Assembly: GCA_963664705.1 (NCBI GenBank)
Contig: OY761556.1
Location: 2,688,001 to 2,752,000, forward strand
Source of the DNA: Acidobacteriota bacterium
GTDB lineage: Bacteria; Acidobacteriota; UBA6911
Reading direction: 5' to 3'
DNA: 64,000 bases
Numbering within the stretch: position 1 is the stretch's first letter; each line of letters starts with the position of its first letter. Below the pieces are notes generated by a model that ran no database searches, was not told the origin of the DNA, and saw only the letters and a list, made by a program, of their open reading frames with translations. Position numbers and translations under genes: made by a program. Below are positions 3,400-55,655 of the stretch, in pieces.

Positions 3400-3545
3400 C
3401 AGATCGTGTTAGAGTCGTGATAACAGAAGCATCCTGGACGTAATCGGCTGAAAACATGAGCGACCTGGCGACACCGGCGTTTTTTCCGTCCACGGTCAAC
3501 GCTGTCCCCAAAAAGCATGCTGGCGGCGAAGAGAGGCAATTCCAC

Positions 3546-5162
3546 ATGAAACGAGCTCTTTTATTCACAATGTGCGCAGTTCTTGTATCCGGCTTCTGCC
3601 TGGCACAGGCGCCAGCCCCTGTCACGATTGAGAGTGGATTGGTGCAAGGGACGGTTGAAGACAGCCTGACGGTTTACAGAGGCATCCCGTTTGCTGCGCC
3701 ACCAGTTGCCAACCTTCGATGGCGCGCTCCTCAGCCTGTGGCAAAATGGGATGGCGTGAAGGAAACCACGAAGTTTGCTCCTGCCTGCATACAGGGCATG
3801 ATGATGGGACCCAGCGGCAACGGCCCTGCGCCAAGCGAGGATTGCCTATATTTGAACATATGGAGTCCTGCAAAATCGGCGCGCGATCGCATCCCAGTAT
3901 TCGTATGGATCTATGGCGGTGGGTTTGCCATGGGATCCACTTCGGAAGCCACCTATAGCGGGGAGATGCTCGCCAAAAAGGGAGTGATGCTCGTAAGCAT
4001 CGCCTACCGCGTAGGACAAATGGGATTCTTCGTGCATCCGGAGCTGAGCGCCGAGACCCGAAACCGCGTATCGGGCAACTACGGCCTGCTGGATATGATT
4101 GCCGGCCTCCAGTGGATTCAAAAAAATATTGCTGCATTCGGCGGCGACCCACATCGCGTGACAATCTTCGGAGAGTCGGCCGGAGGAATCGCCGTCAGCA
4201 TGTTGTGTGCTTCGCCTTTGGCCAAAGGCCTGTTCCACGGCGCAATCTCGGAGAGCGGCGGATCGTTCGGACCACCAAGGCCCGCAACCATGCCCGGAGA
4301 GAACATGAAACGGCTGTCCGACGCGGAGCGATCGGGGACAGAAACGCTTAAATCGGCTGGCGTGGCATCCATTGCAGAGGCGAGGAAACTCCCTCCGGAC
4401 AAGCTTTCAGGCAACGGAGGCCGTGGTCCAAGCGGTTCGGCGGCTCGTGGCGGTGGCGGTCCGGCGGGTTTGACCAATTGGCCGATCGTCGACGGCTGGG
4501 CGATTCCGGATGATCAATACAAGCTATATGAATCGATGCGATATAACGATGTGCCAGTTCTAGTCGGCTACAATTCCGACGAGGGCTTGAGCTTCTCTCC
4601 TCCGCGGACGCCTGAAGAATATGTTGCCAATGTGAAGTCCCGATTCGGTCCGTTCGCCGACAAACTCATCGCGGCCTACCCTCCAGGAACAGGAACAGTA
4701 GCCAAGACTGCGCGCGACCTCATGCGCGATGCAGCATTTGGGTGGCAAACTTGGATTTGGGCGCGATTGCAATCAAAAACGGGCAAATCCAAGGTTTTCT
4801 ATTATTACTTTGATCAGCACCCGGAATATCCGGCCGACTCACCGCAGGCAGGTCGCGGATCGCCGCACGGACAGGAAGTGGCGTATGTATTTCGACATTT
4901 GAATCCGAGTCAGAAACCCACCAAATCGGATGAGACGATATCAGAGGCTATGGCTACCTACTGGACAAACTTCGCCAAATCCGGAAACCCCAATGGCACA
5001 GGCCTCCCGGAATGGCCGGCCTTCAGCGATTCCAATCCCACGCTAATGTACTTTGCTCAGACTCCTCATACAGGGCCGGTTCCAAGTGCGGATGCACTCA
5101 AAGTCATGGATCAATATTTCGCGTGGCGAAGGACTCCTGAGGGTGAAGCCTTTGTGAAATGA
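3546..5162 (+). CDS. Secreted type-B carboxylesterase/lipase
   Basis: Signal peptide MKRALL... after GAGAGG; GIPFAAPPV, SEDCLYLNIW, GESAG nucleophile elbow, NSDE acid and SPHGQE His. Confidence 0.92.
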   Translation: MKRALLFTMCAVLVSGFCLAQAPAPVTIESGLVQGTVEDSLTVYRGIPFAAPPVANLRWRAPQPVAKWDGVKETTKFAPACIQGMMMGPSGNGPAPSEDCLYLNIWSPAKSARDRIPVFVWIYGGGFAMGSTSEATYSGEMLAKKGVMLVSIAYRVGQMGFFVHPELSAETRNRVSGNYGLLDMIAGLQWIQKNIAAFGGDPHRVTIFGESAGGIAVSMLCASPLAKGLFHGAISESGGSFGPPRPATMPGENMKRLSDAERSGTETLKSAGVASIAEARKLPPDKLSGNGGRGPSGSAARGGGGPAGLTNWPIVDGWAIPDDQYKLYESMRYNDVPVLVGYNSDEGLSFSPPRTPEEYVANVKSRFGPFADKLIAAYPPGTGTVAKTARDLMRDAAFGWQTWIWARLQSKTGKSKVFYYYFDQHPEYPADSPQAGRGSPHGQEVAYVFRHLNPSQKPTKSDETISEAMATYWTNFAKSGNPNGTGLPEWPAFSDSNPTLMYFAQTPHTGPVPSADALKVMDQYFAWRRTPEGEAFVK

Positions 5163-5231
5163 GTTGTGCAGCGGCGGTACGACTTTTGAGATTTGATTCG
5201 CTCAACAATTGTGGGAATAGGGGAAATTTGT

Positions 5232-7682
5232 ATGAAAACCCAGGTAAACGAAGATTGGCTCAGGGAAATTGACAATCTGGAATTGAGTGATCGAATCCGA
5301 CAATGGCAAAAGGCCATGAAAGCTTGCCCGAGCCAAATTTATGTCGATAGACAAAGACTCGCATTGGAGTCCTGGGTGGAAACAGAGGGCGAGGACATAG
5401 AAATCCGAAGGGCAAAACTATTCAAGAAGATCGTCGAAAATGTCCCAATAAAAATACACGATTTCGATGTTCTGGTAGGACGGCTTACACCGGGGGTTAT
5501 TGGCGCAAGCACAGCAATCGATATTGTGGGGGACTATATTCCTGCTATTTGGAATGATGACGGGAAAATTCGCATTTCAGTAACAAATGATGGGACTTTG
5601 TCTAAGGCGGATTTGGAAATACTGCGAGAGAGCGCCAGCTACTTCCGCGGAAAAACTGCGCCCGATTTGGCGTACAAAGCATTGCGCTCCCTGGTTGGCA
5701 CGTGGGCCGAAGATTACGAGAGTGCAAAGGGCAAGGACCCGGTCTTAAGTTCAGGGATTTTTCCCGGAACAAGCGCAACGGTGATGTGGAAGAAGATTTT
5801 GACAAAGGGTCTGAGAAGCATCATTGATGAGGCTAAGGAACACATAAAAAACTTTGCGGAAAAGCAGCAACACGGCATAGACAAGGTCATATTCTGGCAG
5901 GCAGCCGAGATCGTTTTGGAGGCTGCAATCAACCACGCCCACCGATATGCCACACTTGCGGAAAATATGGCCGAAAATGAGGAAAACACAATTCGGCGCG
6001 ATGAACTAAAAGAGATCGCCAGGATTTGCCGGTGGGTTCCGGAGTACCCGGCACGCACATTCCAAGAGGCGCTTCAATCGCTGGCTATTGTCGGCGTGTG
6101 CAAAAACTTTGAACACCCAATGCACTGTCACCCTCACCTTGCCAGGGCCGACGAATATCTATGGCCATATTTTGAACAGGATGTTAAGGGAGGAAAGCTG
6201 ACTCTGGGAAAGGCCGCAGAGCTGCTCGAAGAGATCATCGGTCGTTGGGGAAGCCAGATTTTTGTTGCGACTTCAAGCTTCCAGCAGACACATCAGATCA
6301 ATTATGGAATTCATAATGTAGTAGTGGGTGGCGTAGATGCGAACGGGAATGAGATATCAAACGAGTTGAGCTATCTCATTCTTCACATTATAGGATTATT
6401 AAGAATGTCTTCGCCGACCGTTAGCCTTCGCTGTAATAAAAACACGCCCGGCTGGCTCCTGGAAAAGGGATTAGAGACCAACACCAAGACAAGGGGCGGC
6501 ATTCCCCTCTTTCAGAATGAAGACCACGTGATCGACAGCTTCGTCCGTGACGGGGTACCGGTAGAGGAAGCCAGGGAGTGGTTCGGTCTCGGATGCGTGC
6601 AGCCTGTCGTCCCATCCAAAGTAAAGCACTCAGGATGCGAGGGCGCCGGAACAGTAAACGTTGCGCTTGTATTGGATTTGGCCCTCCATAACGGAGTGTG
6701 TGCCCTCACGGGCAAAAAGCTGGGCATCGAGACCGGCAACCCGCGCGATTTTAGGACCTTTACTGCCCTATACGATGCGTTTAAGCAGCAGTTTTCATTT
6801 ATTGCAACGAGAACGCTTTGGTTGGCTCGCACAGTCCGCGAGATAAATGAAAAACATCTGCGGCTTCCTTTCATGTCCAGCCTGATAACACAAGGCTGTA
6901 TGGACGCAGGAAAGGACGCTCTATGTCCGGACCCGTCTTTCCACATTTTCGTCATGCAAGATCGGGCAATTGTGGATACAGCAGATTCTCTCATGGCTAT
7001 TAAGAAACTTGTATTTGATGAAAAGAAATTGACTATGGATGAGCTGATGGGAGCGATTGACTCAAATTTCGAAGGCGTAAGCGGCGAACAAATTAGACGC
7101 ATGTGCTTGGCTGCTCCAAAATTCGGGAATGATATTGACGAAGTGGATCACATGGTACGAGACCTGGGCAAATTCACCTCCGGTGTGATTCGCTCGTATG
7201 ACAATCATCCATACAGCAACTATGGCGTCGTGCGGGAAGGTTTGTCGTGGCATTATTTCGGCGGATTGGGAGTAGGCGCCCTTCCCAATGGCCGCAAGGC
7301 AAAGGAACCGCTGAACGACGGCTCCATATCACCCATGCGCGGAGCGGATGTAAACGGTCCCACTGCCGTAATTCGGTCTGCAATAAAGGCAGGATTCGAC
7401 GAAGCACAGGCATCCGTTCTCAACCAGAAGTTTTCACCCTCCGCCGTTCAAAGTCCTGAGAGCAGGAAAAAAGTGGCGGCGTATACAGGTACATTTTTTC
7501 AGAACGGCGGTCAGCACATCCAGTTCAATATAGTGGACACTAAAGAATTGCTCGATGCGAAGACAAACCCCGAGAAATACAAGGATCTGATTGTCCGGGT
7601 GGGAGGCTTTAGCGCTTACTTTGTTCAACTCTCCCCAGAGATTCAGGATGACATCATCCTTCGCACCGAGCACTCGCTTTAA
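5232..7682 (+). CDS. Glycyl radical enzyme (PFL superfamily) of unknown substrate
   Basis: C-terminal HIQFN...LIVRVGGFSAYF glycyl loop (7596-7610) and Cys loop GCVQP (6591-6605); about 816 aa from ATG 5232. Confidence 0.92.
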   Translation: MKTQVNEDWLREIDNLELSDRIRQWQKAMKACPSQIYVDRQRLALESWVETEGEDIEIRRAKLFKKIVENVPIKIHDFDVLVGRLTPGVIGASTAIDIVGDYIPAIWNDDGKIRISVTNDGTLSKADLEILRESASYFRGKTAPDLAYKALRSLVGTWAEDYESAKGKDPVLSSGIFPGTSATVMWKKILTKGLRSIIDEAKEHIKNFAEKQQHGIDKVIFWQAAEIVLEAAINHAHRYATLAENMAENEENTIRRDELKEIARICRWVPEYPARTFQEALQSLAIVGVCKNFEHPMHCHPHLARADEYLWPYFEQDVKGGKLTLGKAAELLEEIIGRWGSQIFVATSSFQQTHQINYGIHNVVVGGVDANGNEISNELSYLILHIIGLLRMSSPTVSLRCNKNTPGWLLEKGLETNTKTRGGIPLFQNEDHVIDSFVRDGVPVEEAREWFGLGCVQPVVPSKVKHSGCEGAGTVNVALVLDLALHNGVCALTGKKLGIETGNPRDFRTFTALYDAFKQQFSFIATRTLWLARTVREINEKHLRLPFMSSLITQGCMDAGKDALCPDPSFHIFVMQDRAIVDTADSLMAIKKLVFDEKKLTMDELMGAIDSNFEGVSGEQIRRMCLAAPKFGNDIDEVDHMVRDLGKFTSGVIRSYDNHPYSNYGVVREGLSWHYFGGLGVGALPNGRKAKEPLNDGSISPMRGADVNGPTAVIRSAIKAGFDEAQASVLNQKFSPSAVQSPESRKKVAAYTGTFFQNGGQHIQFNIVDTKELLDAKTNPEKYKDLIVRVGGFSAYFVQLSPEIQDDIILRTEHSL

Positions 7683-7923
7683 TAACAACCCCCCGGCCCT
7701 TCAGTCCTGGGATATCCGCTGTTCACTTGTTCCTCTGACCAGTGAGAGGCATGCTTTGAGCAGAAAAATGACCAAACCTAATCCCCATGGTATTGAATCT
7801 GTGATTCGAAGCAACTCTAAAGCCGGACACAAAGTCTTGCCTTCCGGCGGCAATGAAACGATCTTGACCAAGGTCGGATTTTTGCCTCCTTTAAGTCCAC
7901 AGCCTATGCGCAAACGAAAAGAC

Positions 7924-9372
7924 ATGGTTCAGGAGAAGGTATTCGGTTTCGAGATACCGCCAGAACCAATTCCTTCTCGTGACATTAAGAAAAATATCTA
8001 TGCTGAGGTAGTAGTGGTAGGCGGTGGGATAGCAGGGTTGAGTGCTGCCATTTCTGCAGCAGAGGCAGGAGCCAATACCGTCTTATTGGAGAAGACGGCA
8101 ACCATTCAAGCTCGCGGCCACGATAACGCTTTTATCGGTAGCCGGCTTCAGGAAAAGCTGGGAATAAAAATCGATAGAGACGAAGTCATACTAAATTTAG
8201 TGAAATATGGAGCCAATAAGCCTGACCAAAGACTAATCAGATTGTGGGCCGAAGGAAGCGGTAAAACTGCCGACTGGCTCATGGATATGACGGACGCCGC
8301 GGGTCTCGAGGTAATTATTAACCACTATCCCCCGCCTCCAGCTTTCACTCATGACAGGGAATACTATCCTCAATATTCAGTTACGCACCATTACCACAAT
8401 GAACGTCCAGTAGCCAGATGTTTACTGGATAATGCCCTCAAGAAAGGCGTTACTGCATATTTTAAAACCCGCGCAAAGCAGCTTCTGCGAAAGAAGAACG
8501 GCCGGGTCACCGGCGTTGTTGCCCAAAATGCGGATGGTGAATATCAGCAGTTCAATGCTTCCAAAGCCGTTATACTCTGCACCGGAGATTACAGCAACAA
8601 CGCTGAGATGATGGCTAAATACTGTCCGCAATCATCATACCTCGAATCCATGATACCCACTTCCAATGGAGACGGGCATATGATGGCGATGTGGGTTGGT
8701 GCAGTCATGGAACCCGGGCCGCATATACCGATGATCCACGGCCCCGCCGGTCCACTTCTCAGTTCGGCCTTCCTTCAAGTAAATCTCAAGGGAGAACGCT
8801 TTCAGAATGAAGATGTCCCAATTCAAAGTAATGTAAATGCCGTCGAGCGACAACCTGGCAGGATAGCCTGGCAGGTATTTGATTCGAAGTATCCGGAGGA
8901 ACTTCCATATCTTGGGATAGGCCTGGGGAAAATTATTATTGCAACTAAAACAATCCGGCAAAAAGTGGATAAAGCAGCAATAAAGGCCAACTCGATCGAA
9001 GAACTGGCAACGAAGATGAAAATACCGGTTGAAGCCTTTGTGGCCACCATCAGGAGATACAACGAACTGGCACGACTGGGAAGAGATCTGGACTTTGGCA
9101 AGCGGCCGGATCGCTTGTTTGCTATTGATAATCCCCCATATTGTGCGGGTAAAAGTGGTTACGAATTACTGGCTGTTTTGGGAGGCCTTAATATCAATTG
9201 GAAATTGCAGCCTCTGGATAAGGATTGGGAAATCATTCCAGGAATCTATCTTGCAGGAAATACAATGGGCAATCGCTTTGCCGTAGATTACCCAACGATG
9301 TGCCCCGGGCTTAGCCATGGAATGGCAATACACTTTGGCCGGGTTGCCGGGTTAAATGCTGCCTCGCAATAA
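7924..9372 (+). CDS. FAD-dependent oxidoreductase (flavocytochrome c / fumarate reductase / 3-ketosteroid dehydrogenase-like)
   Basis: VVVVGGGIAG FAD motif, LCTGD, GDGHMMA, GERFQNE, DLDFGK and IPGIYLAGN. Start uncertain (7906 or 7924); the upstream ORF extension overlaps the GRE gene. Confidence 0.85.
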   Translation: MVQEKVFGFEIPPEPIPSRDIKKNIYAEVVVVGGGIAGLSAAISAAEAGANTVLLEKTATIQARGHDNAFIGSRLQEKLGIKIDRDEVILNLVKYGANKPDQRLIRLWAEGSGKTADWLMDMTDAAGLEVIINHYPPPPAFTHDREYYPQYSVTHHYHNERPVARCLLDNALKKGVTAYFKTRAKQLLRKKNGRVTGVVAQNADGEYQQFNASKAVILCTGDYSNNAEMMAKYCPQSSYLESMIPTSNGDGHMMAMWVGAVMEPGPHIPMIHGPAGPLLSSAFLQVNLKGERFQNEDVPIQSNVNAVERQPGRIAWQVFDSKYPEELPYLGIGLGKIIIATKTIRQKVDKAAIKANSIEELATKMKIPVEAFVATIRRYNELARLGRDLDFGKRPDRLFAIDNPPYCAGKSGYELLAVLGGLNINWKLQPLDKDWEIIPGIYLAGNTMGNRFAVDYPTMCPGLSHGMAIHFGRVAGLNAASQ

Positions 9373-9568
9373 TGACCTAGCAGCGATATGGCAAAGGCCA
9401 TCAGCTACATTTACGGCCGCCGGATGGACGACAACTCCGATGATTGCAGTCCACAGAGTCATCGCCAATTTGATTCGCTGAGTTCACGACGCCATTGGGC
9501 TTTCTTCCGCGCTAATATGCGTTGGCAGCCCGCATCTGCAATATTTGAAATCGGACAAATCAGACCTT

Positions 9569-13282: not shown

Positions 13283-15259
13283 TTATCTGTGAGTCACCGG
13301 GTTTTTGTAATGGAATGGGGCGACAAAGGTCGCAGGGTACGAATCATACGCATCCGTCGGCGGCCGATCCGGTAGGAACGTCTTCTCCGGATGGGTATTC
13401 GGCAACGCACTCTTACCCCACCCCTCCGCATAAGGTGTGCAGAACCTGGAGTAGGCGTGCAACGCTTTGATCTTCCAGATCGCACCCTCCTTAACATATT
13501 CATTTTCATAGGTGCCGCCGCCCCAGCTTGCAGATTTCAGATGTTCACCAATTTCGTTGAGAAATCGCCAGCGGCCTTTAGCGGTCATCCCGCCGGGAGC
13601 GACGTCAACGATGGGCTGCAGCTGAATATGGTTATAAAGCGTACCTCGTGCCAGACCATCCGGAGAAATCCGGACAAGGTACTCAAGCACTCTTGACTTG
13701 CCGGCAAATACACCCTTCCCACCCATTTCGAGAGTTCCGTCATCAGCGAAAAGGTCGGCGGCTTCTTTCCAGAGCTGCTTGTCGATATAAAAACCATAGA
13801 TCCGTTGCAGATTTTCGATCGCCCTCTCGTCTTCGAGCTGTAGTATACGGTTGCTTACGCGAATGTACGCGGCTCGCAATTCCTCCGGGATCGGCAATGC
13901 CGCTATTTCAGATTTCTCCGGCTTGCTTTGAACCGCGGTTGGATTCTTATAGTGAAACGGAGGAATATAGATCCCCGGGAAACTTTCATAGGTTTCGCTG
14001 GGTGGCTTGTCTGGAGGGATTTTGTCGCTGCGCTTAGGTGCCTCACGCGGGGCCATAGCCCAACCCTTATCGTATGGAGCAAAGAAAGTAGTGTAGAGGT
14101 GATCCTTTTTAAACTTCCAGTTGCCCCCTTCCATGACAAGCTCGTTCTCGTATACGCTGTCGCCCCAAATCCCGGTGCTTCCGAAAGTACCTAGCTGGCT
14201 AAGAGCTCGGCTGCGCACATTCGCGTGTTGTCCATCCGGAGCCAGATGAATGACCGGTTGCATTTGGATGTGATTGTGTAAGTGGCCCGGCTCAATATTC
14301 TGCGGTCCGAACAATTCCCACGCACGTCTCACGCCCTTTTTGCCAACATAAATGCCGCGCTGAGAAATTTCCATGGTCGAATCTTCAACAAACAGATCCG
14401 TGAGTTGGGCCCATTGCTGTTTGTCGAGATAGTACCCATACATAGAAACAAGGTTTTCAATTTCCTCAATGTCTTGAAGACTTCTGATGCGGCGGGCCAT
14501 TGCCTCGAGAGCCGCATCAGTTTCAATCGCTTTTCCTGAAGAAGCATGCGCTGAGGTTTGGTAGTGGTAAGGTGGCGTATACACACCAGGCCACACTTCA
14601 TACTGTTCGCTTGGAGGTCGATCCGGAGGAAGCTGCGTTGAAACATGGATTCCGTTCGTGCTATCCCTGTTTGCGGCCCATCCACCTTGATAGGGCACCA
14701 TGAAAGTCTGATACCAATGCAGTTTGCTGATCTTCCAGATTCCGTTATGTTTGATGTACTCATTCTCGTAAACGCCTTCACCCCAAAAAGCGCTTTTATT
14801 CAGCTGTCCCGACATGATGACCGCGCGCCAGCGCGCCTTCGCCGTGTGGCCTTCGTCCGAGACATGCACTACCGGCTGGAGTATAAAATGTTCGTTGAGC
14901 TGGCCATGTCTCAAACCATCGCGACCACCGCCATAAGCCAGCAAGTATTGGCGAATTCGTTTCTGGCCGACATAGATCCCATCAAGGCCGATTTCGATTG
15001 TGCCTTGTGGCGCAAAAAGATCCGCAGCCTGATTCCACATTCCGCAATCGAGGTAATATCCATAGGCACGCTGCAAGCGCTTCAGATCGCTTACATCTCG
15101 AATGCGATCAACCTCCTTTTCGAGCTGCTCGAGTTGTCTCCGGAAAACGACATCCTTTTCCCGGTCTTCTGCTTTATTGCGCGATTGCCCGTTGTCGGCA
15201 CCTGTATGTATCCACACGGCTGCAAGCATTGTGACCCCGATGCAAAGTAGAGGTTTCAT
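13283..15259 (-). CDS. Secreted protein with three tandem SnoaL-like (NTF2-fold) domains
   Basis: Three repeats of YG[YF]Y[LI]D...W...DLF...H...QP[VI]...YENE...WK...PY..GW; signal peptide MKPLL... Confidence 0.85.
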   Translation of the reverse strand: MKPLLCIGVTMLAAVWIHTGADNGQSRNKAEDREKDVVFRRQLEQLEKEVDRIRDVSDLKRLQRAYGYYLDCGMWNQAADLFAPQGTIEIGLDGIYVGQKRIRQYLLAYGGGRDGLRHGQLNEHFILQPVVHVSDEGHTAKARWRAVIMSGQLNKSAFWGEGVYENEYIKHNGIWKISKLHWYQTFMVPYQGGWAANRDSTNGIHVSTQLPPDRPPSEQYEVWPGVYTPPYHYQTSAHASSGKAIETDAALEAMARRIRSLQDIEEIENLVSMYGYYLDKQQWAQLTDLFVEDSTMEISQRGIYVGKKGVRRAWELFGPQNIEPGHLHNHIQMQPVIHLAPDGQHANVRSRALSQLGTFGSTGIWGDSVYENELVMEGGNWKFKKDHLYTTFFAPYDKGWAMAPREAPKRSDKIPPDKPPSETYESFPGIYIPPFHYKNPTAVQSKPEKSEIAALPIPEELRAAYIRVSNRILQLEDERAIENLQRIYGFYIDKQLWKEAADLFADDGTLEMGGKGVFAGKSRVLEYLVRISPDGLARGTLYNHIQLQPIVDVAPGGMTAKGRWRFLNEIGEHLKSASWGGGTYENEYVKEGAIWKIKALHAYSRFCTPYAEGWGKSALPNTHPEKTFLPDRPPTDAYDSYPATFVAPFHYKNPVTHR

Positions 15260-15365
15260 GGCCAACCCTCACCAGGCGTGAAAGTTCCTGCATTTATGGT
15301 TCCTTTGTACTGCATGTGGCCGGAAATCGAAGAGTTGTCTAAAAGCGATACCTTAGCACAATTGT

Positions 15366-29458: not shown

Positions 29459-31414
29459 TCACGGCCGTGGTCCATAGTGCGGAAGAGGCTGATCGACTTC
29501 ATACGCACCCAGGTCCGGCGCACGTCCAGTGAAATCGTCATTAATGTTTTGGAGTCGAGTCCCGCCATCCACGGCCGCCGCTCCCGGTCGGAGCCGGAAA
29601 TCAAATGCCTCGGGTTTATAGATTTTTTGCGGGTCGGCCGGATCTGGTGCCGAAATCCTCTGAAATACATCGTAATCGATCAGAATGCTGTGCTTGTCCT
29701 GGCCAGTGGCCTGGGTGAAAGCCTGGAGCGTTTTGAACTTCCGCTCTTCCCGTTTCGAAGTAAAATCCGCACGCGTCCCGAAAGGAGGAGAATTCCACAT
29801 GAAAGAAACATCGGCGTCCTCATTGGGACGGAACCCATTGTAGTCAGAGCTCGAGTAGTTGGTAAATGTATCAACCGTGAAAATTTCTGCGACTTCGCTT
29901 CGGCTGAGAATCAGGTTGTTGCGGAAATGCAAATTGGATACAGCCGAAAGCATCCATCGCGCAGGCGCAATCAGCGTGTTGTGATAGACCAGGATTCCCG
30001 ACGATCCATACATGAACTTCAAAGCTCCACCTTCCGGGACGTGGTACACAACATTGCGCATGAAGTACACCGGGCCGCCAAAGACAGGTTGAGTACTCAG
30101 CGCGCGATGAGCATCATTGAAGCACCGGTTGCGAAATACCCGGATGTTATGGGCAGCGCCGTCGGCCTCGATGCAGTTGTCGTCGACATTTGTGATGTCG
30201 TTATTGTAAAAATCTATCGAAACCGGCAGCCGGTCCCGAATCGGATTCGGCGTACCGTCCGGGTCGCCGTACGTGGCGTGATCGATCCCGTCATGAAAAT
30301 TGGCAACATAGTTATATGCAACCACATGGCCTGAACCATAAACCTTCACGGCAAACTCAGAAAGCATCCGGTTGGGAAACCCCGGGAGATTTCTCCAGGT
30401 ATTTCCGATCCAGCCCATCAGCACGTCGGATCTGTTCCTACCGACAAAAATATTGTCTGCGATATAATAGTCTTTTGAGCCGGACCAGTCGGTGTATATT
30501 CCACGGCCGATGTTTTCGAAGCGGCATTTCTTAACAGTAAGACCGCTGGAACCCGCAATATTCTTCAGCCCCGCCACAAATGCAATATCGGTATTGCGGA
30601 TGGTCAACCCCTCGAAGTAGTTGTAATTTGCGGCCATCACATTGAACAAGGTATGCGCCCCGTCGCCATCGAATATCACCTCTCCATCACCTGCAGACTT
30701 AATGACGATGGGTTTGTCGGCCGTTCCGCTTTGCGTCAGGAAAAACGTTCCATCCGATGGAGCGGTGCCCGCATCACCTCCCTGCGCGTAGGAAAACCGG
30801 TTGTCTTTGTATAAACCCGCATGCACAAGAATCGTATCGCCAGGCCTCACGCGTGGCGGAAACGTATTGTGATTATCCGTGTGCGAGGAGCCCATGAAAT
30901 ATGCGGCTCCCAATCCAGTGAAGGCTGGTATCTCTTTCGGGCCCTTATAGCCTCCAGGGTAGACATGATAAACCTGTCCTCCCGCGAATGGCATTGGTTC
31001 CGGGCGTGTGCGCACAGCAATCAGGTATTCCGCTTTTCCTCTAACGCCATCAGGATCGCTCAACACAAATCGGCACTCATATTCGGCTCCCGGGGTTAAA
31101 TCAAAGATGCTCCCAGCGAACATATTGGGCGCGGTATAGGACATGGGGCCGCTGATGGTCGGCTCGCGCTGCAGCCGCAATAATGGCAGCCCCTGTTTCC
31201 ATTCCTTTTTCCCCATCTGCCGATAAAAAACGGCGACTCCCGCATTTCGGTTATCATCGCCGTCTATCTGCCACTCAAATCCGAGGGAAATCAGGGTTGG
31301 AGGCTCCGCGATGAATTCTTTGGAAACAACGCCATCGCCCGCTTCAAGAGCATGTGCGAGAAACGGCAGAATGGACAATAGGATCGCGATTCGGCATTGT
31401 GCAAATATTCGCAT
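29459..31414 (-). CDS. Secreted right-handed beta-helix (pectin-lyase-fold) protein
   Basis: Signal peptide; PGDTILVHAGLY, GTADKPIVI, Asn-rich coil repeats and C-terminal APDLGAYE. Confidence 0.78.
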   Translation of the reverse strand: MRIFAQCRIAILLSILPFLAHALEAGDGVVSKEFIAEPPTLISLGFEWQIDGDDNRNAGVAVFYRQMGKKEWKQGLPLLRLQREPTISGPMSYTAPNMFAGSIFDLTPGAEYECRFVLSDPDGVRGKAEYLIAVRTRPEPMPFAGGQVYHVYPGGYKGPKEIPAFTGLGAAYFMGSSHTDNHNTFPPRVRPGDTILVHAGLYKDNRFSYAQGGDAGTAPSDGTFFLTQSGTADKPIVIKSAGDGEVIFDGDGAHTLFNVMAANYNYFEGLTIRNTDIAFVAGLKNIAGSSGLTVKKCRFENIGRGIYTDWSGSKDYYIADNIFVGRNRSDVLMGWIGNTWRNLPGFPNRMLSEFAVKVYGSGHVVAYNYVANFHDGIDHATYGDPDGTPNPIRDRLPVSIDFYNNDITNVDDNCIEADGAAHNIRVFRNRCFNDAHRALSTQPVFGGPVYFMRNVVYHVPEGGALKFMYGSSGILVYHNTLIAPARWMLSAVSNLHFRNNLILSRSEVAEIFTVDTFTNYSSSDYNGFRPNEDADVSFMWNSPPFGTRADFTSKREERKFKTLQAFTQATGQDKHSILIDYDVFQRISAPDPADPQKIYKPEAFDFRLRPGAAAVDGGTRLQNINDDFTGRAPDLGAYEVDQPLPHYGPRP

Positions 31415-40376: not shown

Positions 40377-42152
40377 TTACCTCCACATGTCCACTGATGC
40401 TGAGGCCAGGCAAAAGAAGTCGCCGGTCATCCAAAATGCATCGGTTCCCCCACCAACAACAAATATCTCCACCGGAGCATCCTGCAGAATCAGTGGCCGC
40501 GGCGAATTCGATTCGGGTGGTTGTTTTAGTAACGATGCAAATGGCTCTATCCCTTCCTTGGCGGAATCCAAGTCTCCAGGCATCGCTGCCCAATAGTTCC
40601 AAAGAGTCATATAGGTATTTTCCTTGAGCCACCGGCCTAACGCTTCCTTGCTTTTGAATCCTTCATTCAGAAGATCGTTTGCCGTTATAGGACTCAGCAA
40701 TAGAGCCGCTTGAGTTCCAGGATTGATCCCGGGAGTATGATGCGTACCGGCGCCACTGGTTTCAAAACTTAACAATTGCCGCTTCAGAATTTCGTGATGC
40801 GGGTGCGGTTTATAGGCGGCATAGTTCAGCAGACTCCAACCCGTAAAAATACTGATGACACTTTCTTCGGCTTTGAAACCCTTCTGCACATGAAAAGGAT
40901 TCCATCCTTCAGGCAGCGCCCTCTCATTCTCGGCAAAACACATGTTGTTGTAATTGGTATTATTCCCTATATCACCCAGATACGTCTCACGTGGCTTCGC
41001 TCCTCCGAGGTTTTTGGAAATTAGTGTCCACGCTCTCCCAATGACCGCATTGGCTTGATTGAACGGGCCCAATGCACCAATTCCACAATTCATATTCATT
41101 TCCTCACACATAGGCCCATTGGCTACGACCATCCGGGTGAAAGAGGTTGCGGAACTGAAAAATGAGGTTATTCCGGTCGACGCTATAGCCAATATCGCCG
41201 GAAGATGCTCGGCTTTGGCTCCTGCCATCACGGCATTGATGGCAACGTGTTCCACGGTATATTCCCAAGCCTCGTGGGGAGGAGAGGGTTGCATAGCTAC
41301 CGGGATATGTTTTGCGCCCTTAATCACAGCTCTGGCGCCTAGATTTGCTACAGATTGATCCCAATATTCATGGGGAGGCGATGTCTGCATTCTGCCGACA
41401 ATTTCATCCGGCCTGTGGCTCGTCCCCCTGAGCATTTCGGCCACTCTTTCCTCTGTAGGGAGCACGATCGGCAGATAATCCGTCCATCCATTTTCGAGAA
41501 ATAGATTTTCCAAATTTTCCGAAGTATCAGGACCCAAGCGCCTTGGCTGCGGCCTTTCAATCGTTCCTGTCTTCTTTTCCTCATCGGTAGTCGGCAAGGT
41601 CAGCGCATCAACGATTCCCTGCATGACAGGCTTGCCGCTGATGGGATCATTCCCTTCGAGGTAGCTTCGGTGCATCTCGAAAGGCCTGTTTGCAAAAGGA
41701 TGAGGCACAAAGGTGAATCGCAGTTCAGGAACGCCCTTCTTGTAGGCAAAATTCCTGATAAGATCGGTAAACGCGTTCGTAACAACAGGAGCTGTGGGCA
41801 CCCCCAATTTTTCCAACATTGAGCAGAAAATCGTCACGGATGGAGCACAGGTATCCAGTTGACCAATGCCCATTACAACACCATGCCCCTTTTCTTTGAT
41901 TTCAGCCCAAAGCTGCGGGTCATTGTGAAAATATGTCCCAATTTTGGTTCTGAGTATCCAGGTGGTGCCGGGGTATCTCGCGGTGAGCAGCTTTTGCATT
42001 TCCTCAAAGAATTGATGCGTTCGCGGAAAATTAACATCCACGATATAGATTGTCTTGCCCTCCAGCGTATCCAGCCGGGGCGCCATGGCAATCAATTGGA
42101 TGGGAGGAGCAATTCCTCGTGGACTCAAAACTGTGATTTTTTCATTCGTCAT
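40377..42152 (-). CDS. UGSC-family-like protein (thioredoxin-like N-domain fused to GWTD-LP-x-PT domain)
   Basis: APRLDTLEGKTI, GIGQLDTC, LEKLGVP, GWTDYLPIVLPT, VAINAVMAG and ANAVIGRA; ATG 42152 follows GGAGG. Confidence 0.75.
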   Translation of the reverse strand: MTNEKITVLSPRGIAPPIQLIAMAPRLDTLEGKTIYIVDVNFPRTHQFFEEMQKLLTARYPGTTWILRTKIGTYFHNDPQLWAEIKEKGHGVVMGIGQLDTCAPSVTIFCSMLEKLGVPTAPVVTNAFTDLIRNFAYKKGVPELRFTFVPHPFANRPFEMHRSYLEGNDPISGKPVMQGIVDALTLPTTDEEKKTGTIERPQPRRLGPDTSENLENLFLENGWTDYLPIVLPTEERVAEMLRGTSHRPDEIVGRMQTSPPHEYWDQSVANLGARAVIKGAKHIPVAMQPSPPHEAWEYTVEHVAINAVMAGAKAEHLPAILAIASTGITSFFSSATSFTRMVVANGPMCEEMNMNCGIGALGPFNQANAVIGRAWTLISKNLGGAKPRETYLGDIGNNTNYNNMCFAENERALPEGWNPFHVQKGFKAEESVISIFTGWSLLNYAAYKPHPHHEILKRQLLSFETSGAGTHHTPGINPGTQAALLLSPITANDLLNEGFKSKEALGRWLKENTYMTLWNYWAAMPGDLDSAKEGIEPFASLLKQPPESNSPRPLILQDAPVEIFVVGGGTDAFWMTGDFFCLASASVDMWR

Positions 42153-42409
42153 GCGGATCGGTGCCTCCATGCCATCTTCGTGTATGTTTTCCACAGAATA
42201 GATGCTGTTGGCCTTAATCTACAGCTTTGTCAAAACTGGAGCAATGACTCAATTGTCACCCAGCCATAGAATTCAATATTCCTATTTTGCCTGGAGTTTC
42301 ACAATTAACCACAACCCTGATAGATCAAAAAATGAAACAATGTAATAATGGACTCCGGCATCTTGATTTCTACTTTATTGCACAAACGCTTTGGGAAGGA
42401 GTGGGATAT

Positions 42410-44179
42410 ATGAGCGGAACAGTGTCCTTGGTGTGTCTCAACCCTCAAGGTGCAGTTGAATCTCCTGCAATTTCGGGGCTCATCAATCCTCGTATAGAAA
42501 ATCTGGAAGGAAAGAAGATAGCGATAATCTGGGATGGCAAAAAGGGTGGGGATAAATTTTGTATCGCGATTGAAGAGTTGCTGAGGAAAAGGTTTCCTAC
42601 GGCAACAACCATGCGGCTGGTTTGGGGAGATGCTGAAGCTGCCGCAAAAGCAAAAAAGGAAATGGACACCTTTATTTACGGAGTCGCAGACAATGGGATG
42701 GGAGGATGGATTCAGTGCCGGCAGGTAATCGCCCTGGAAAAAATCGGAAAACCGGGCGTTTTCGTTATTGGAGATAACGCGATTCACACGACCAGAATGT
42801 CGGTTGAGCATGCCGGAATGCCGGCAATACGAGTCGTAAGTCTCCCCTCCATTGACTATTATCCAAACAGATTGACAGTGGAAGATATCCGGCCTGTTGC
42901 GGAAGCATCGTTGGATCGCATCATCGATGCGCTTACCAAGCCTCTTGCAGCGGAGGAGAAAGATCCTCCGGTCAAGGATAATAGAGAGACTGCTCACACA
43001 GTCGAAGTCAATGCAGAGAGTTACGATTCCGCCCTCGAATCATTCAATGCGCTGTATCTCAACAATCACTGGGGTGACGGGCTGCCGCTGATTCCTCCTA
43101 CGGAGTCTGCCGTCAAGCGGATGTTGGCGGGAACCAAACGCCCCCCCGATGAAGTTGTAGGCCGAGTTCCCTATCGAAACGGCATTGCCACAGTTGAAAA
43201 GATAGCCATAAATGCCGTCATGGCCGGCGCAAGACCTGAGTATTTCCCGGTAATACTGGCAGCCATGGAATGCCTGGCTGAAGAGAGCACATTCACTCAT
43301 ATGATGAGTTCAGAAGGTTCCTTCACACTCGCAATAATGGTAAGCGGGCCTATTGGCAAGGAAATAGGAATGAATTGCGGGGTAGGATTGTTGGGGCATG
43401 GCTGGCAAGCCAACAATACCATCGGCCGCGCCGTTCGGCTGAATCTGATCAATATCGGATGCCTCTGGCCGGGCGAGATCGATATGGCGCTTATTGGCCG
43501 ACCGTCTTCGCACACTTTCTACACTTTTGCTGAGAACATAGAGCTCACTCCCTGGGAAACCTTTAATGAAGGCTTAGGCTATCGATCGGAAGACAGCTGT
43601 GTAACGGTATCCACCGTGACAAGCGTAGGCGCCGGAATGGCCATGAAATTATTGGGCGGTGGAGTGGTCGAACCCTGGGATGTGAATGCGGTGCTCAAGG
43701 ATATTGTGATGGATGTTGCCGAGGACCGAGGCACATTCGCTCAATACAAACTTGGGGTGGCGAATCCCATGGCGCATCTAAGAAAACATATAATAGTTGT
43801 CCACCCTGAACTGGCTGTCATGCTGCATCGTCGCGGCTTCAAAACCAAACAAAGCCTGCGTGATTACATTTATGAGAATACGATGGTTCCATTTGAAGAG
43901 CTAAGCGAAGACGAAATACGCGGCTTGAATGACCGGATGAACACCAGGCGTCCCGATATGGACATCTTCTATGCTCACGATGCTATTCCGGCGGAACGCT
44001 TGCCGGTGCTCAAGGAAGCCCTGAAACCGGGAGGCAAGGTTCCGGTCGTGAACCCTGAAGACATCCATATCATCGTATCCGGCAGTATTCCGGGCTATTC
44101 CTTCGGAATGGCCTACTTCCGTACTGCCCACAAAACAAAACCAATAACGGGTGCTGCTTTTACCAAATCCGGCCGCTAG
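42410..44179 (+). CDS. UGSC-family-like protein, divergent paralog
   Basis: PRIENLEGKKI, GVADNGMG, LEKIGKP, WGDGLPLIPPT, ATVEKIAINAVMAGARPEY and ANNTIGRA; ATG 42410 follows AAGGAG. Confidence 0.75.
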   Translation: MSGTVSLVCLNPQGAVESPAISGLINPRIENLEGKKIAIIWDGKKGGDKFCIAIEELLRKRFPTATTMRLVWGDAEAAAKAKKEMDTFIYGVADNGMGGWIQCRQVIALEKIGKPGVFVIGDNAIHTTRMSVEHAGMPAIRVVSLPSIDYYPNRLTVEDIRPVAEASLDRIIDALTKPLAAEEKDPPVKDNRETAHTVEVNAESYDSALESFNALYLNNHWGDGLPLIPPTESAVKRMLAGTKRPPDEVVGRVPYRNGIATVEKIAINAVMAGARPEYFPVILAAMECLAEESTFTHMMSSEGSFTLAIMVSGPIGKEIGMNCGVGLLGHGWQANNTIGRAVRLNLINIGCLWPGEIDMALIGRPSSHTFYTFAENIELTPWETFNEGLGYRSEDSCVTVSTVTSVGAGMAMKLLGGGVVEPWDVNAVLKDIVMDVAEDRGTFAQYKLGVANPMAHLRKHIIVVHPELAVMLHRRGFKTKQSLRDYIYENTMVPFEELSEDEIRGLNDRMNTRRPDMDIFYAHDAIPAERLPVLKEALKPGGKVPVVNPEDIHIIVSGSIPGYSFGMAYFRTAHKTKPITGAAFTKSGR

Positions 44180-53705: not shown

Positions 53706-55655
53706 CTATTTGATATACGGGTTGTATTTGATTGCGCCGGTTTTCTGATCACGGGAATAGTGTTTGAAGAAATCCCATGCAAGCCTGGCATACTCGGGAT
53801 AGAGGGCGTGAATCAGATTCTCCGTATAGTTTAGCGCTACCATCGGAACCCCGCTGCCATTATTCAGATACCAGCTATAGTTATCATACTCGTTATTGAG
53901 CCTAGTCCTCTCCAAACGATCCGCCTTGAAGCCGGCTATCGGGTACGTCGCGAAATCATAGGGACCAATCGTCTTCATACCATTGTAGCCAAGAAAGAGA
54001 TTGAGCTGGGTCTGGTACCCGACGGCGATGCTTCCATTAGCTTGATCGAATGCACCCCCCAAATCGAACGAAGAAGTGGTGAACATCACCGGCAAATTAG
54101 CCTTCTTCAGCTGCACGGCCTGTTCCGGGGTAGCGGTATAAGGCGCAGCCGCCATGGGAACCGCGGCTGCAAACACAAAGGGATCGCCATTGATTGCTTT
54201 GAGTGTTCCGGCCCCGCCCATTGAGTAGCCGGTAACATAAACGCGCGATGGATCCAATGCCGGGTAGGTTTTGAGAATGCTCTTAACGAACCGGGGCAGG
54301 ATATTGCACAACAAGCCTTGAAGCGTGGGATCGTTCGTTCTCGAGAAATTCAGAGACTGATGCTCCGGCGCAACCATGGCAAAGCGTTCGGAACCCGCCA
54401 GGTCCAGCAAGCCGATTTCGTCCACAAACACGCGGGGGTCATCTCCGCCTCCATGCATGGCCAGAATCAGCGGCACGGTTCCCGCAGGCGCCGTTCCCTT
54501 CAGCACTTCTTCCGGAAGATATTCAAACCAGGTCTGCAGGTATTCGCCCTCTTTCGACTTAATGTCGCTGAATGCTTCCGAAGTCTTTCGGATTAGGTGG
54601 ATACCGTCTTGCGTCACTCCGCTGATTACGGCATTTCTGCGGCACAATGAATATGGGGCCTCATCGAAGTTGTATCCCTGGTAAGGAGTGGATGCGGAGT
54701 ATAGCCCCTGCTTGATGACGGGCACACGCATCGCTTTAATGAACAGGTTGTAGTAGGCATCTTTTATATATCTGGCGGCATCCGACTTTCCTGTTTCCTT
54801 TGCGACGACAACTCTTTTGAGAGGAAGCGCCTGGTTATAGTGTGTTTCAACGCCGCCGGCGCTTATGTACGCATCGACATCATTGGCCTTTTTATATTTT
54901 GCAACGATTGATTCAGCTGTATTCACGAGATACACGGGAACGAGTGCCGCAACCCCGCGAATGCTATCCATTTTGCCGTTGATCAAAAGCATGCCGGCAA
55001 TGCGGCTTACGTAATCGAAAGTTCCGGCGACATAGTTATTGAGAAATGTTGCGCCGCCGTCCAGGCCGATCACATAGGTATAACCATATCCCCCGAAGTA
55101 CTCTGCATCCGAATAACTTATGGCCGTACTCCCACTTCTTTCAGAAGCCTTTTGGGCCAACATGGCAGTCTGAAGAGCGTAATAATATTTCTGGTCATTT
55201 GCGGTAAAGCCCGCTTTGGGATCCGATGGAGTGACAAGCACGATGCTGCCAACTGCCTGGTCAATGATCTTGGTCAAACCCAAGTCCTTGAGATATGCAA
55301 GCGCGGCATCTTTGCCGGCAAATGATATTTCGGCGAACACCAGAATATTTGTGTTCAGCCTTGCCGCGGCGCGTCCGCCGAACAGATTGGCGGATCGATA
55401 GACATACGTAATCCCTTTGGGATAGTTGTCCAAAACGGGGTGAGACTTGAACGTTTTTCCATTATTGGTTTCCAATGGAGCGACGGCCGCGGGACTGCTA
55501 GCGCGGGTTTCTTCCAAGGTTTCGAAGGTAACCGGATTCCCCTGGCTGCCGGAATAATTCAGCGCAAAAACACGGTAGGAGGGTAGGCAGCTCGCTACCA
55601 GCGCCATAAAAATCGCTAAAAACAACCTCTGCTTGAACATAACCTGATTCTCCAA
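53706..55655 (-). CDS. Secreted two-domain esterase (C-terminal PHB-depolymerase-like alpha/beta hydrolase)
   Basis: PLILAMHGGG, RVYVTGYSMGG and LIHALYPEY; large uncharacterised N-terminal domain. Confidence 0.8.
   Translation of the reverse strand: MENQVMFKQRLFLAIFMALVASCLPSYRVFALNYSGSQGNPVTFETLEETRASSPAAVAPLETNNGKTFKSHPVLDNYPKGITYVYRSANLFGGRAAARLNTNILVFAEISFAGKDAALAYLKDLGLTKIIDQAVGSIVLVTPSDPKAGFTANDQKYYYALQTAMLAQKASERSGSTAISYSDAEYFGGYGYTYVIGLDGGATFLNNYVAGTFDYVSRIAGMLLINGKMDSIRGVAALVPVYLVNTAESIVAKYKKANDVDAYISAGGVETHYNQALPLKRVVVAKETGKSDAARYIKDAYYNLFIKAMRVPVIKQGLYSASTPYQGYNFDEAPYSLCRRNAVISGVTQDGIHLIRKTSEAFSDIKSKEGEYLQTWFEYLPEEVLKGTAPAGTVPLILAMHGGGDDPRVFVDEIGLLDLAGSERFAMVAPEHQSLNFSRTNDPTLQGLLCNILPRFVKSILKTYPALDPSRVYVTGYSMGGAGTLKAINGDPFVFAAAVPMAAAPYTATPEQAVQLKKANLPVMFTTSSFDLGGAFDQANGSIAVGYQTQLNLFLGYNGMKTIGPYDFATYPIAGFKADRLERTRLNNEYDNYSWYLNNGSGVPMVALNYTENLIHALYPEYARLAWDFFKHYSRDQKTGAIKYNPYIK

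Follow-up and report, generated by a model that had tools for sequence, protein, structure and literature searches.

An activase-less glycyl radical enzyme gene in an Acidobacteriota genome is a conserved second copy from a widespread, unstudied clade

The 64-kb stretch of DNA analysed here (hereafter, the window) encodes an oxygen-sensitive glycyl radical enzyme (GRE). The gene is intact and conserved, and it is the second copy in its genome from a GRE clade that is widespread but unstudied. The explanation that we tentatively favor, at a probability of roughly 0.3, is that this extra clade copy is activated in trans by the activase encoded beside its paralog, and acts as a radical lyase on a hydroxylated carboxylic acid freed from an ester. 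The new elements are a subgroup of the clade with a Cys-loop Gln and a remodelled pocket, its testing against the residues of PhdB, and genomic evidence for shared activation. A literature search, covering few subscription journals, found no paper describing the clade. The main features of the window are the following:

3546-5162, + strand: carboxylesterase (PF00135), ending 69 nt before the GRE start
5220-5224, + strand: Shine-Dalgarno-like GGGGA, 7 nt before the GRE ATG
5232-7682, + strand: GRE gene, PFL-like, 816 aa, Gln subgroup of the uncharacterised clade (from the open reading frame, family scan, and model)
6591-6605, + strand: Cys loop GCVQP, residues 454-458, with catalytic C455 and with Q457 at the eliminase Glu position
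6960-6965, + strand: D577-R578, in 90/90 aligned clade rows; R578 putatively pocket-facing, D577 the putative partner of R668
7233-7238, + strand: R668-E669; E669 a candidate acid/base, at the position of PhdB Tyr691 in alignments
7596-7610, + strand: Gly loop RVGGF, residues 789-793, with radical-bearing G792
7924-9372, + strand: flavocytochrome-c/fumarate-reductase-like flavoprotein (PF00890, FAD_binding_2), start uncertain

The 816-aa translation contains no internal stop, and the GCVQP and RVGGF loops named in the original prediction are both in place, with the full C-terminal GRE fingerprint (RVxG[FWY]x6-8[FL]x4Qx2[IV]x2R; PMC13450708) at R789-R811. The gene order is also as it had been described, with the PF00135 carboxylesterase 5' and the FAD_binding_2 flavoprotein 3' of the GRE, and flanking gaps of 69 nt upstream and about 240 nt downstream. 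That no activase is encoded in the window was confirmed as well: the six CxxxCxxC strings found over its six frames all belong to frames that are short or of the shadow type (22-181 codons) and none is activase-like, and the TIGR02494 profile returned no activase over its cut-off there. A scan of the region for promoters and terminators gave chance-level matches only. A contig from a public run, spanning positions 3400-9400, is identical to the window DNA and may be its source. The GC3 of the gene, at 0.54, is below the genome median of 0.61 and places it in the 8th percentile among 1604 long ORFs, which weakly hints that it was acquired.

The homologs of the window GRE are 57-90% identical to it among the 120 matches listed. 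Over the query and these homologs, the residue two positions after the catalytic Cys is Tyr in 107 sequences, Gln in five, Thr in four, and Asn, Ser, Met, Arg, or Trp in one each. Glu occupies this position in none of these 121 sequences and in none of the 90 aligned clade rows, seven of which carry Gln. The members of this Gln subgroup are 83-90% identical, and they are nested, with starred support, among rows with Tyr, Asn, Thr, Ser, or Met in a quickly built tree of 33 rows with SH-aLRT support only. CxQ also occurs in sister lineages outside the clade (P0126, P0128, and P0129), so the Cys-loop Gln is not diagnostic. The Cys loop reads GCSQ in the uncharacterised sister lineages P0126, P0128, P0129, P0130, and P0132, and the GCSQ proteins that were aligned share the R578/R668 and W673-H674 equivalents with the clade. 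In the Gly loop, both G791 and G792 are found in 90/90 clade rows, and the invariance of G792 rules out an aminoacyl radical enzyme with Ala, Ser, or Thr in place of Gly. Thr or Ala does replace the radical Gly in the outgroup proteins P0168, P0182, P0184, P0193, and P0200, as in described aminoacyl radical enzymes.

When a genome collection was scanned with the single protein as query, no match was returned; an alignment-based scan yielded 646 related stretches, from which 78 clade loci were kept. Their hosts are Acidobacteriota, Dehalococcoidia, Desulfobacterota (including Desulfatiglans), Sporobacter, Papillibacter, Peptococcaceae, Spirochaetes, and Actinomycetota, and, judging by these clade relatives, the host Acidobacteriota is probably anaerobic. 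In the host genus, 27 of the 29 other genomes hold exactly one clade copy, 56-61% identical to the window GRE, and within the genus only the host genome holds two. No clade match at E < 1e-200 was obtained in the 107 genomes of other genera of the class, and no Gln-type copy in the 136 other genomes of the class; a metagenome scan provided two Gln-type loci (L112 and L113). In two Dehalococcoidia genomes, the clade protein is the only GRE at E < 1e-70. Databases label clade proteins as formate C-acetyltransferase, which is a mislabel, and an Atlas search returned generic PFL-like names.

A non-functional relic that has lost its activase would be consistent with the sufficiency of a single copy in nearly all of the genus and with the lack of an upstream activase at all three Gln-type genes with available context, namely those of the window, L112, and L113, which make up the entire context sample for the subgroup. 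This reading is nevertheless highly improbable, because the dN/dS ratio between the window GRE and its metagenome orthologs in L112 and L113 is 0.062-0.074 (at dS 0.8-1.2), which argues that its function has been maintained. Moreover, the five closest 90% clusters hold 52 member sequences, and with eight GREs for four activases, sharing appears to be routine in the host genome.

The structure model, built from 150 sequences, reached a pLDDT of 94.1 and a pTM of 0.93, while an earlier model from 22 sequences had a pLDDT of 77.9 and was poor in the active-site loops. It matches solved GREs over about 780 residues, with Z scores up to 47, and confidently places the invariant C455 in a central Cys loop within a ten-stranded barrel. 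The closest structures are diol and glycerol dehydratases (Z 46-47), with AAD, HPAD, and BSS lower (Z 40-42). Every NCBIfam GRE model scored the protein below its cut-off, and its structural matches are 17-31% identical, so that, as initially proposed, it is an uncharacterised GRE. Several family assignments were discarded. The 1,2-eliminases and isomerases (GD, PD, CutC, HypD, IslA, HpsG, YbiW, and PflD) have a CxE motif that is absent here, and all their models fall below cut-off. Formate lyases (PFL, TdcE) are excluded by the single loop Cys of GCVQP and by a score of 82.6 bits against a cut-off of 994, and X-succinate synthases (BSS, MASS) by the absence of small Fe-S subunit genes in the flanking gaps. 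IAD and HPAD membership is contradicted by the lack of CxE and by scores of 383 and 279 bits against cut-offs of 1100 and 1150, and AAD orthology by 29% identity and a Z score of 41.6.

The host genome (G000) is a single 6.89-Mb contig with eight PFL-like GREs and four activases over the TIGR02494 cut-off; a genome devoid of activases is thus not at issue. The activase nearest to the window lies about 79 kb upstream (G000:2612967-2613839). The other clade copy and its activase are found 2 Mb away:

G000:4683002-4685446: clade paralog, 57% identical to the window GRE
G000:4685505-4686410: clade activase, adjoining the paralog

Judging from gene content across genomes, the window GRE is probably activated in trans by this paralog-side activase. 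When 10 of the 78 clade loci, cut within 100 nt upstream, were set aside, 68 with at least 600 nt upstream were kept, and 60 of these contain an activase (one as a fragment), mostly 15-150 nt from the GRE. All 60 match the paralog-side enzyme best among the four activases of the host genome, at 47-85% identity. A clade copy devoid of a neighboring activase was found in nine other genomes (G013 and G046 being counted once; G050, also searched, has no orphan). Seven of them encode elsewhere an activase 55-66% identical to the paralog-side one, for example, 2.4 Mb away in G047 and 0.4 Mb away in G045, which lends support to the activation in trans that had been predicted. The displaced activase adjoins tannase-family esterases in G045 and G047, and a cupin in G046 and G008. 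In G049, three clade GREs accompany one clade-type activase. The paralog is also the only other host GRE with GG in its Gly loop, and its C-terminal 87 aa share 63% identity with those of the window GRE, versus 37-54% for the other six host GREs. The Gly-loop sequence reportedly directs which activase acts on a GRE (PMC13450708, section 2.5). The host genome also contains two more activase-less GREs (G000:5766476-5768881 and 6260435-6262882) and a GRE pair flanking one activase (G000:1557418-1564990).

Two observations go against the favored explanation: in the orphan genomes G043 and G048 (2/9), the best activase match is only 44-45% identical, and in L113 the Gln-type gene is followed, 1 kb downstream, by an activase of a different type. 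This L113 activase is 81% identical to the one located 79 kb upstream of the window, which could then be the activator of the window GRE; in L154, two different GREs in tandem follow an activase of this type. This alternative is rather unlikely, given that orthologs of the nearby activase (75-78%) adjoin orthologs of another GRE (82-85%) in L107, L108/L159, L154, and L161, that the GRE partnered with it has RVAGYSA and a C-terminal identity of 49%, and that the 60 clade-adjacent activases all match the paralog-side enzyme better.

For the active site, side-chain orientation was derived from alignments and strand register, using the substrate contacts of HypD and IslA as mapping reference (PMC7077986, PMC8473560). 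HypD S334, F340, Y450, and T645 map to Q355 (cap helix), I360, T474, and L671, respectively, and IslA R678 maps to V667. HypD His160, which tunes the CxE Glu (PMC7077986), is replaced by S181. Over the 90 clade rows, H354, Q355, H466, G468, E669, L671, and W673 are nearly or fully invariant, while being rare outside the clade; E669, for example, is present in 89/90 clade rows and in 0/75 outgroup rows. D577, R578, and R668, which never vary within the clade, are also found in a wider group, and Arg or Lys occurs at position 578 in 22 of the 46 outgroup rows lacking CxE, compared to none of the 29 with it. We infer that R578 and E669 line the pocket. Residues 571-578 form a strand in the model and, if 576 faces the pocket, residues 574, 576, and 578 would point in and 577 out. 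In the 75 outgroup rows, the counterparts of D577 and R668 are both present in 14, both absent in 49, and found singly in 12 (the rows being related and not independent), a co-occurrence expected of an outward salt bridge. The BSS numbering (W613/N615/I617) fits this strand register only within one residue, so the pocket register is uncertain.

The Gln subgroup departs from the 83 other clade rows at Q457, H361 (Asn in all 83), T474 (Ala in 74), V574 (Gly in 71), and Q576 (Ser in 75). Because these pocket positions differ, the alignment suggests that the Gln-type copy and the paralog use different substrates.

The gene neighborhoods constitute another source of information on the substrate. 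Of 66 clade loci, 23 have an esterase within 2 kb, compared to four of the 45 loci of other GREs covered by the same search; within 5 kb, the counts are 27/66 and 10/45 (39 of the 66 clade loci having none). This enrichment is overstated, as the esterase panel was built from clade neighbors and kin are not independent; 14 clade loci with less than 4 kb of flank were dropped. These esterases belong to unrelated families (HSL, carboxylesterase, tannase/feruloyl esterase, beta-lactamase type, CocE type, and GDSL). In the window, esterase or alpha/beta-hydrolase families account for 15 of the 34 large proteins scanned (window 3546-63516), and because of this density the local pairing is weak evidence alone. 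The link to esterases made in the original prediction is, therefore, sustained at the clade level and weak from the window itself. The window esterases comprise five carboxylesterases, two CocE-type enzymes, a tannase, a GDSL, a beta-lactamase-type, and a PF00756 protein, and the same region holds GH3, GH43, sugar-acid dehydratases, and a sugar ABC transporter.

L113 keeps the carboxylesterase-GRE pairing (88% identity over the 83 esterase residues present there). A fixed esterase-GRE-flavoprotein operon was rejected, since only an N-terminal remnant of the downstream flavoprotein persists in L113 (2819-3079) and similar flavoproteins occur in 4/80 clade loci. Homology searches with the flavoprotein and the esterase gave distant, uninformative matches only. 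Cupin-like proteins lie within 5 kb of the GRE in 30/66 clade loci versus 7/45 other-GRE loci; a cupin small subunit was discarded for the window GRE, which has none within 5 kb. A small cupin-like family with no Pfam match (L008:6147-6542) is expanded in the host genome, at about 20 sites, and is frequent beside clade GREs. Short-chain dehydrogenases are found near 11 clade loci and flavin ene-reductase-like genes near 13; other recurrent neighbors are SnoaL proteins, IclR regulators, and TRAP transporters. Genes for a molybdopterin enzyme and an Fe-S subunit lie near clade GREs at L123:1-3275, L012, L024, and L039; they presumably resemble pyrogallol transhydroxylase. Overall, the clade neighbors point loosely to plant ester and polyphenol breakdown, and no conserved pathway at the clade loci names a substrate. 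Elsewhere in the window, a 660-aa protein with three SnoaL_4 domains (13283-15265, - strand) is encoded beside a gluconolactonase-like gene and a family-less protein, two divergent genes with N-terminal UGSC domains lie at 40377-44179, and two proteins of about 650 aa (29459-31414 and 53706-55655) have no Pfam match at 1e-6.

In the radical lyase reading, esterases would free a hydroxylated carboxylic acid from plant esters, and the window GRE would perform a radical C-O elimination on the released hydroxy-acid, with R578 as substrate anchor and E669 as a substitute base for the missing CxE Glu. In its favor are the proximity of the model to diol/glycerol dehydratases rather than to AAD, HPAD, and BSS, the near or full invariance of E669, Q355, H354, H466, and R578 in the 90 rows, and the frequency of esterases near clade loci. 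It is challenged mainly by the retention of the CxE Glu in every eliminase and isomerase characterised (PMC13450708). The clade has neither this Glu nor the equivalent of HypD His160, and the characterised GREs that lack CxE (PFL, BSS, and PhdB) perform C-C chemistry.

A close rival, which we hold to be nearly as likely, is a radical decarboxylase of a new type, acting on an aryl or hydroxy acid that esterases set free; E669 would be the proton donor in place of PhdB Tyr691, and R578 would bind the ring or the carboxylate. PhdB, like the clade, has no CxE: its motif is CXQ, while IAD and HPAD have Glu there, and its Q484, W495, and Y691 are essential (PMC7079210). The starting premise that PhdB and IAD both lack the Glu thus holds for PhdB, which has Gln, and fails for IAD. 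Arg226 of IAD is covered in PMC13232127 and PMC9248008.

PhdB residues were mapped indirectly, through a stand-in, P0217, chosen on motifs: it carries CxQ, a Trp at +13, and S-x-Y-x-V near +208, has no His327 equivalent, and is not PhdB itself. Through it, W495 falls on G471 (no Trp occurring at residues 466-474), and Y691 on E669, the P0217 Tyr being aligned through glycerol dehydratase. The correspondence of E669 with the proposed proton donor, the invariant, putatively pocket-facing Arg, the acid-releasing esterases, and the CxQ of the sister lineages P0126, P0128, and P0129 all fit a decarboxylase. Decarboxylase active sites also differ widely from one another (PMC13450708). On the other hand, Q484 is essential in PhdB, whereas its counterpart Q457 varies across the clade, and HPAD Glu637 falls on Q576 in an ungapped local match. 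Assuming that IAD Arg226 occupies the position of HypD His160, its counterpart is S181. P0217 is 32% identical to the window GRE and separated from it by many starred branches, and the two motif-based PhdB stand-ins branch apart from it in the quick tree of 33 rows. AAD and HPAD rank low in the structure and sequence comparisons; over residues 441-707, the catalytic half, they come 25th and last, respectively, of 31 solved sequences. A PhdB-type identity was rejected, with Gln nested in 7/90 rows, W495 on G471, and Y691 on E669. The proposal that the Gln marks a PhdB/IAD-type decarboxylase found no support, as IAD has Glu, the essential PhdB Trp and Tyr are absent, and the Gln is unconserved. 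None of the 120 listed matches of P0217 is named PhdB. With P0313-P0431, P0217 belongs to a large unnamed GRE family (119 relatives listed, 57-67% identity, including Desulfoscipio and Chloroflexota), which may contain arylacetate decarboxylases, PhdB-like motifs having been checked in P0217 alone.

Another chemistry, such as fumarate addition, radical C-C scission, or the ring-opening isomerisation of a polyphenol or sugar-acid fragment, is a less likely option. It would agree with the C-C chemistry of non-CxE GREs, and with hosts and neighbors (molybdopterin oxidoreductases, corrinoid proteins, IclR regulators, and transporters of the TRAP and branched-chain types) that suggest anaerobic aromatic metabolism. 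Nevertheless, the activase-GRE gaps in the clade, mostly 15-150 nt, leave no room for BSS-like small subunits, and none is encoded in the window. The fumarate-binding Arg of BSS, R508, falls on the Gly-rich stretch G468-G471, and the single loop Cys excludes formate lyase chemistry. Isomerases, for their part, keep CxE (PMC13450708).

More speculatively, and with little likelihood, the clade could be the anaerobic radical C-O lyase so far missing for esters and ethers derived from lignin or polyphenols. Esterases would strip acyl groups, the thiyl radical would abstract a benzylic or carbinol hydrogen, and the barrel glutamate would set off cleavage of the neighboring C-O(aryl) bond in a redox-neutral manner, while paralogs with different pockets and one shared activase would cover different substrates. 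If true, this would add an as yet undescribed reaction class to the GREs.

Orphan GREs are ordinary in themselves, and the window GRE should be seen as a lead for enzyme discovery, not as a surprise. GREs have, however, repeatedly been a source of new chemistry, and this clade, near-universal in one Acidobacteriota genus (27/29 other genomes), does without the Cys-loop Glu on which every characterised eliminase depends. The host genome offers a test set: two clade paralogs that differ in their pocket residues, a single activase that they may share, and three further activases as controls. It is suited for testing both the reaction and activase specificity, whose rules have been little studied.

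Compared to known systems, the proposed sharing of an activase has precedents in pairs of GREs with similar Gly loops, TdcE being activated by PFL-AE in E. coli and BSS by IBSS-AE (PMC13450708, section 2.5). These are different enzymes, and the cross-activation of the window GRE is deduced from genomes alone. AAD and HPAD have the GRE fold in common with the window GRE (Z 41.2-41.6). PhdB shares with it the C-x-Q Cys loop and the lack of a small subunit, but the Gln is essential in PhdB and not conserved in the clade. The closest systems are the glycerol/1,2-propanediol dehydratases (1r8w, 5i2a, and 9rco) and HypD (6vxc), with Z scores of 45.6-47.3 and rmsd of 1.9-2.0 Å over about 780 residues, at 29-31% identity. 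They have the same single-subunit GRE barrel, with one loop Cys and the standard Gly fingerprint. Whereas these enzymes rely on the CxE Glu and its His partner, the window GRE is devoid of both, and its R578 and E669 are new relative to them.
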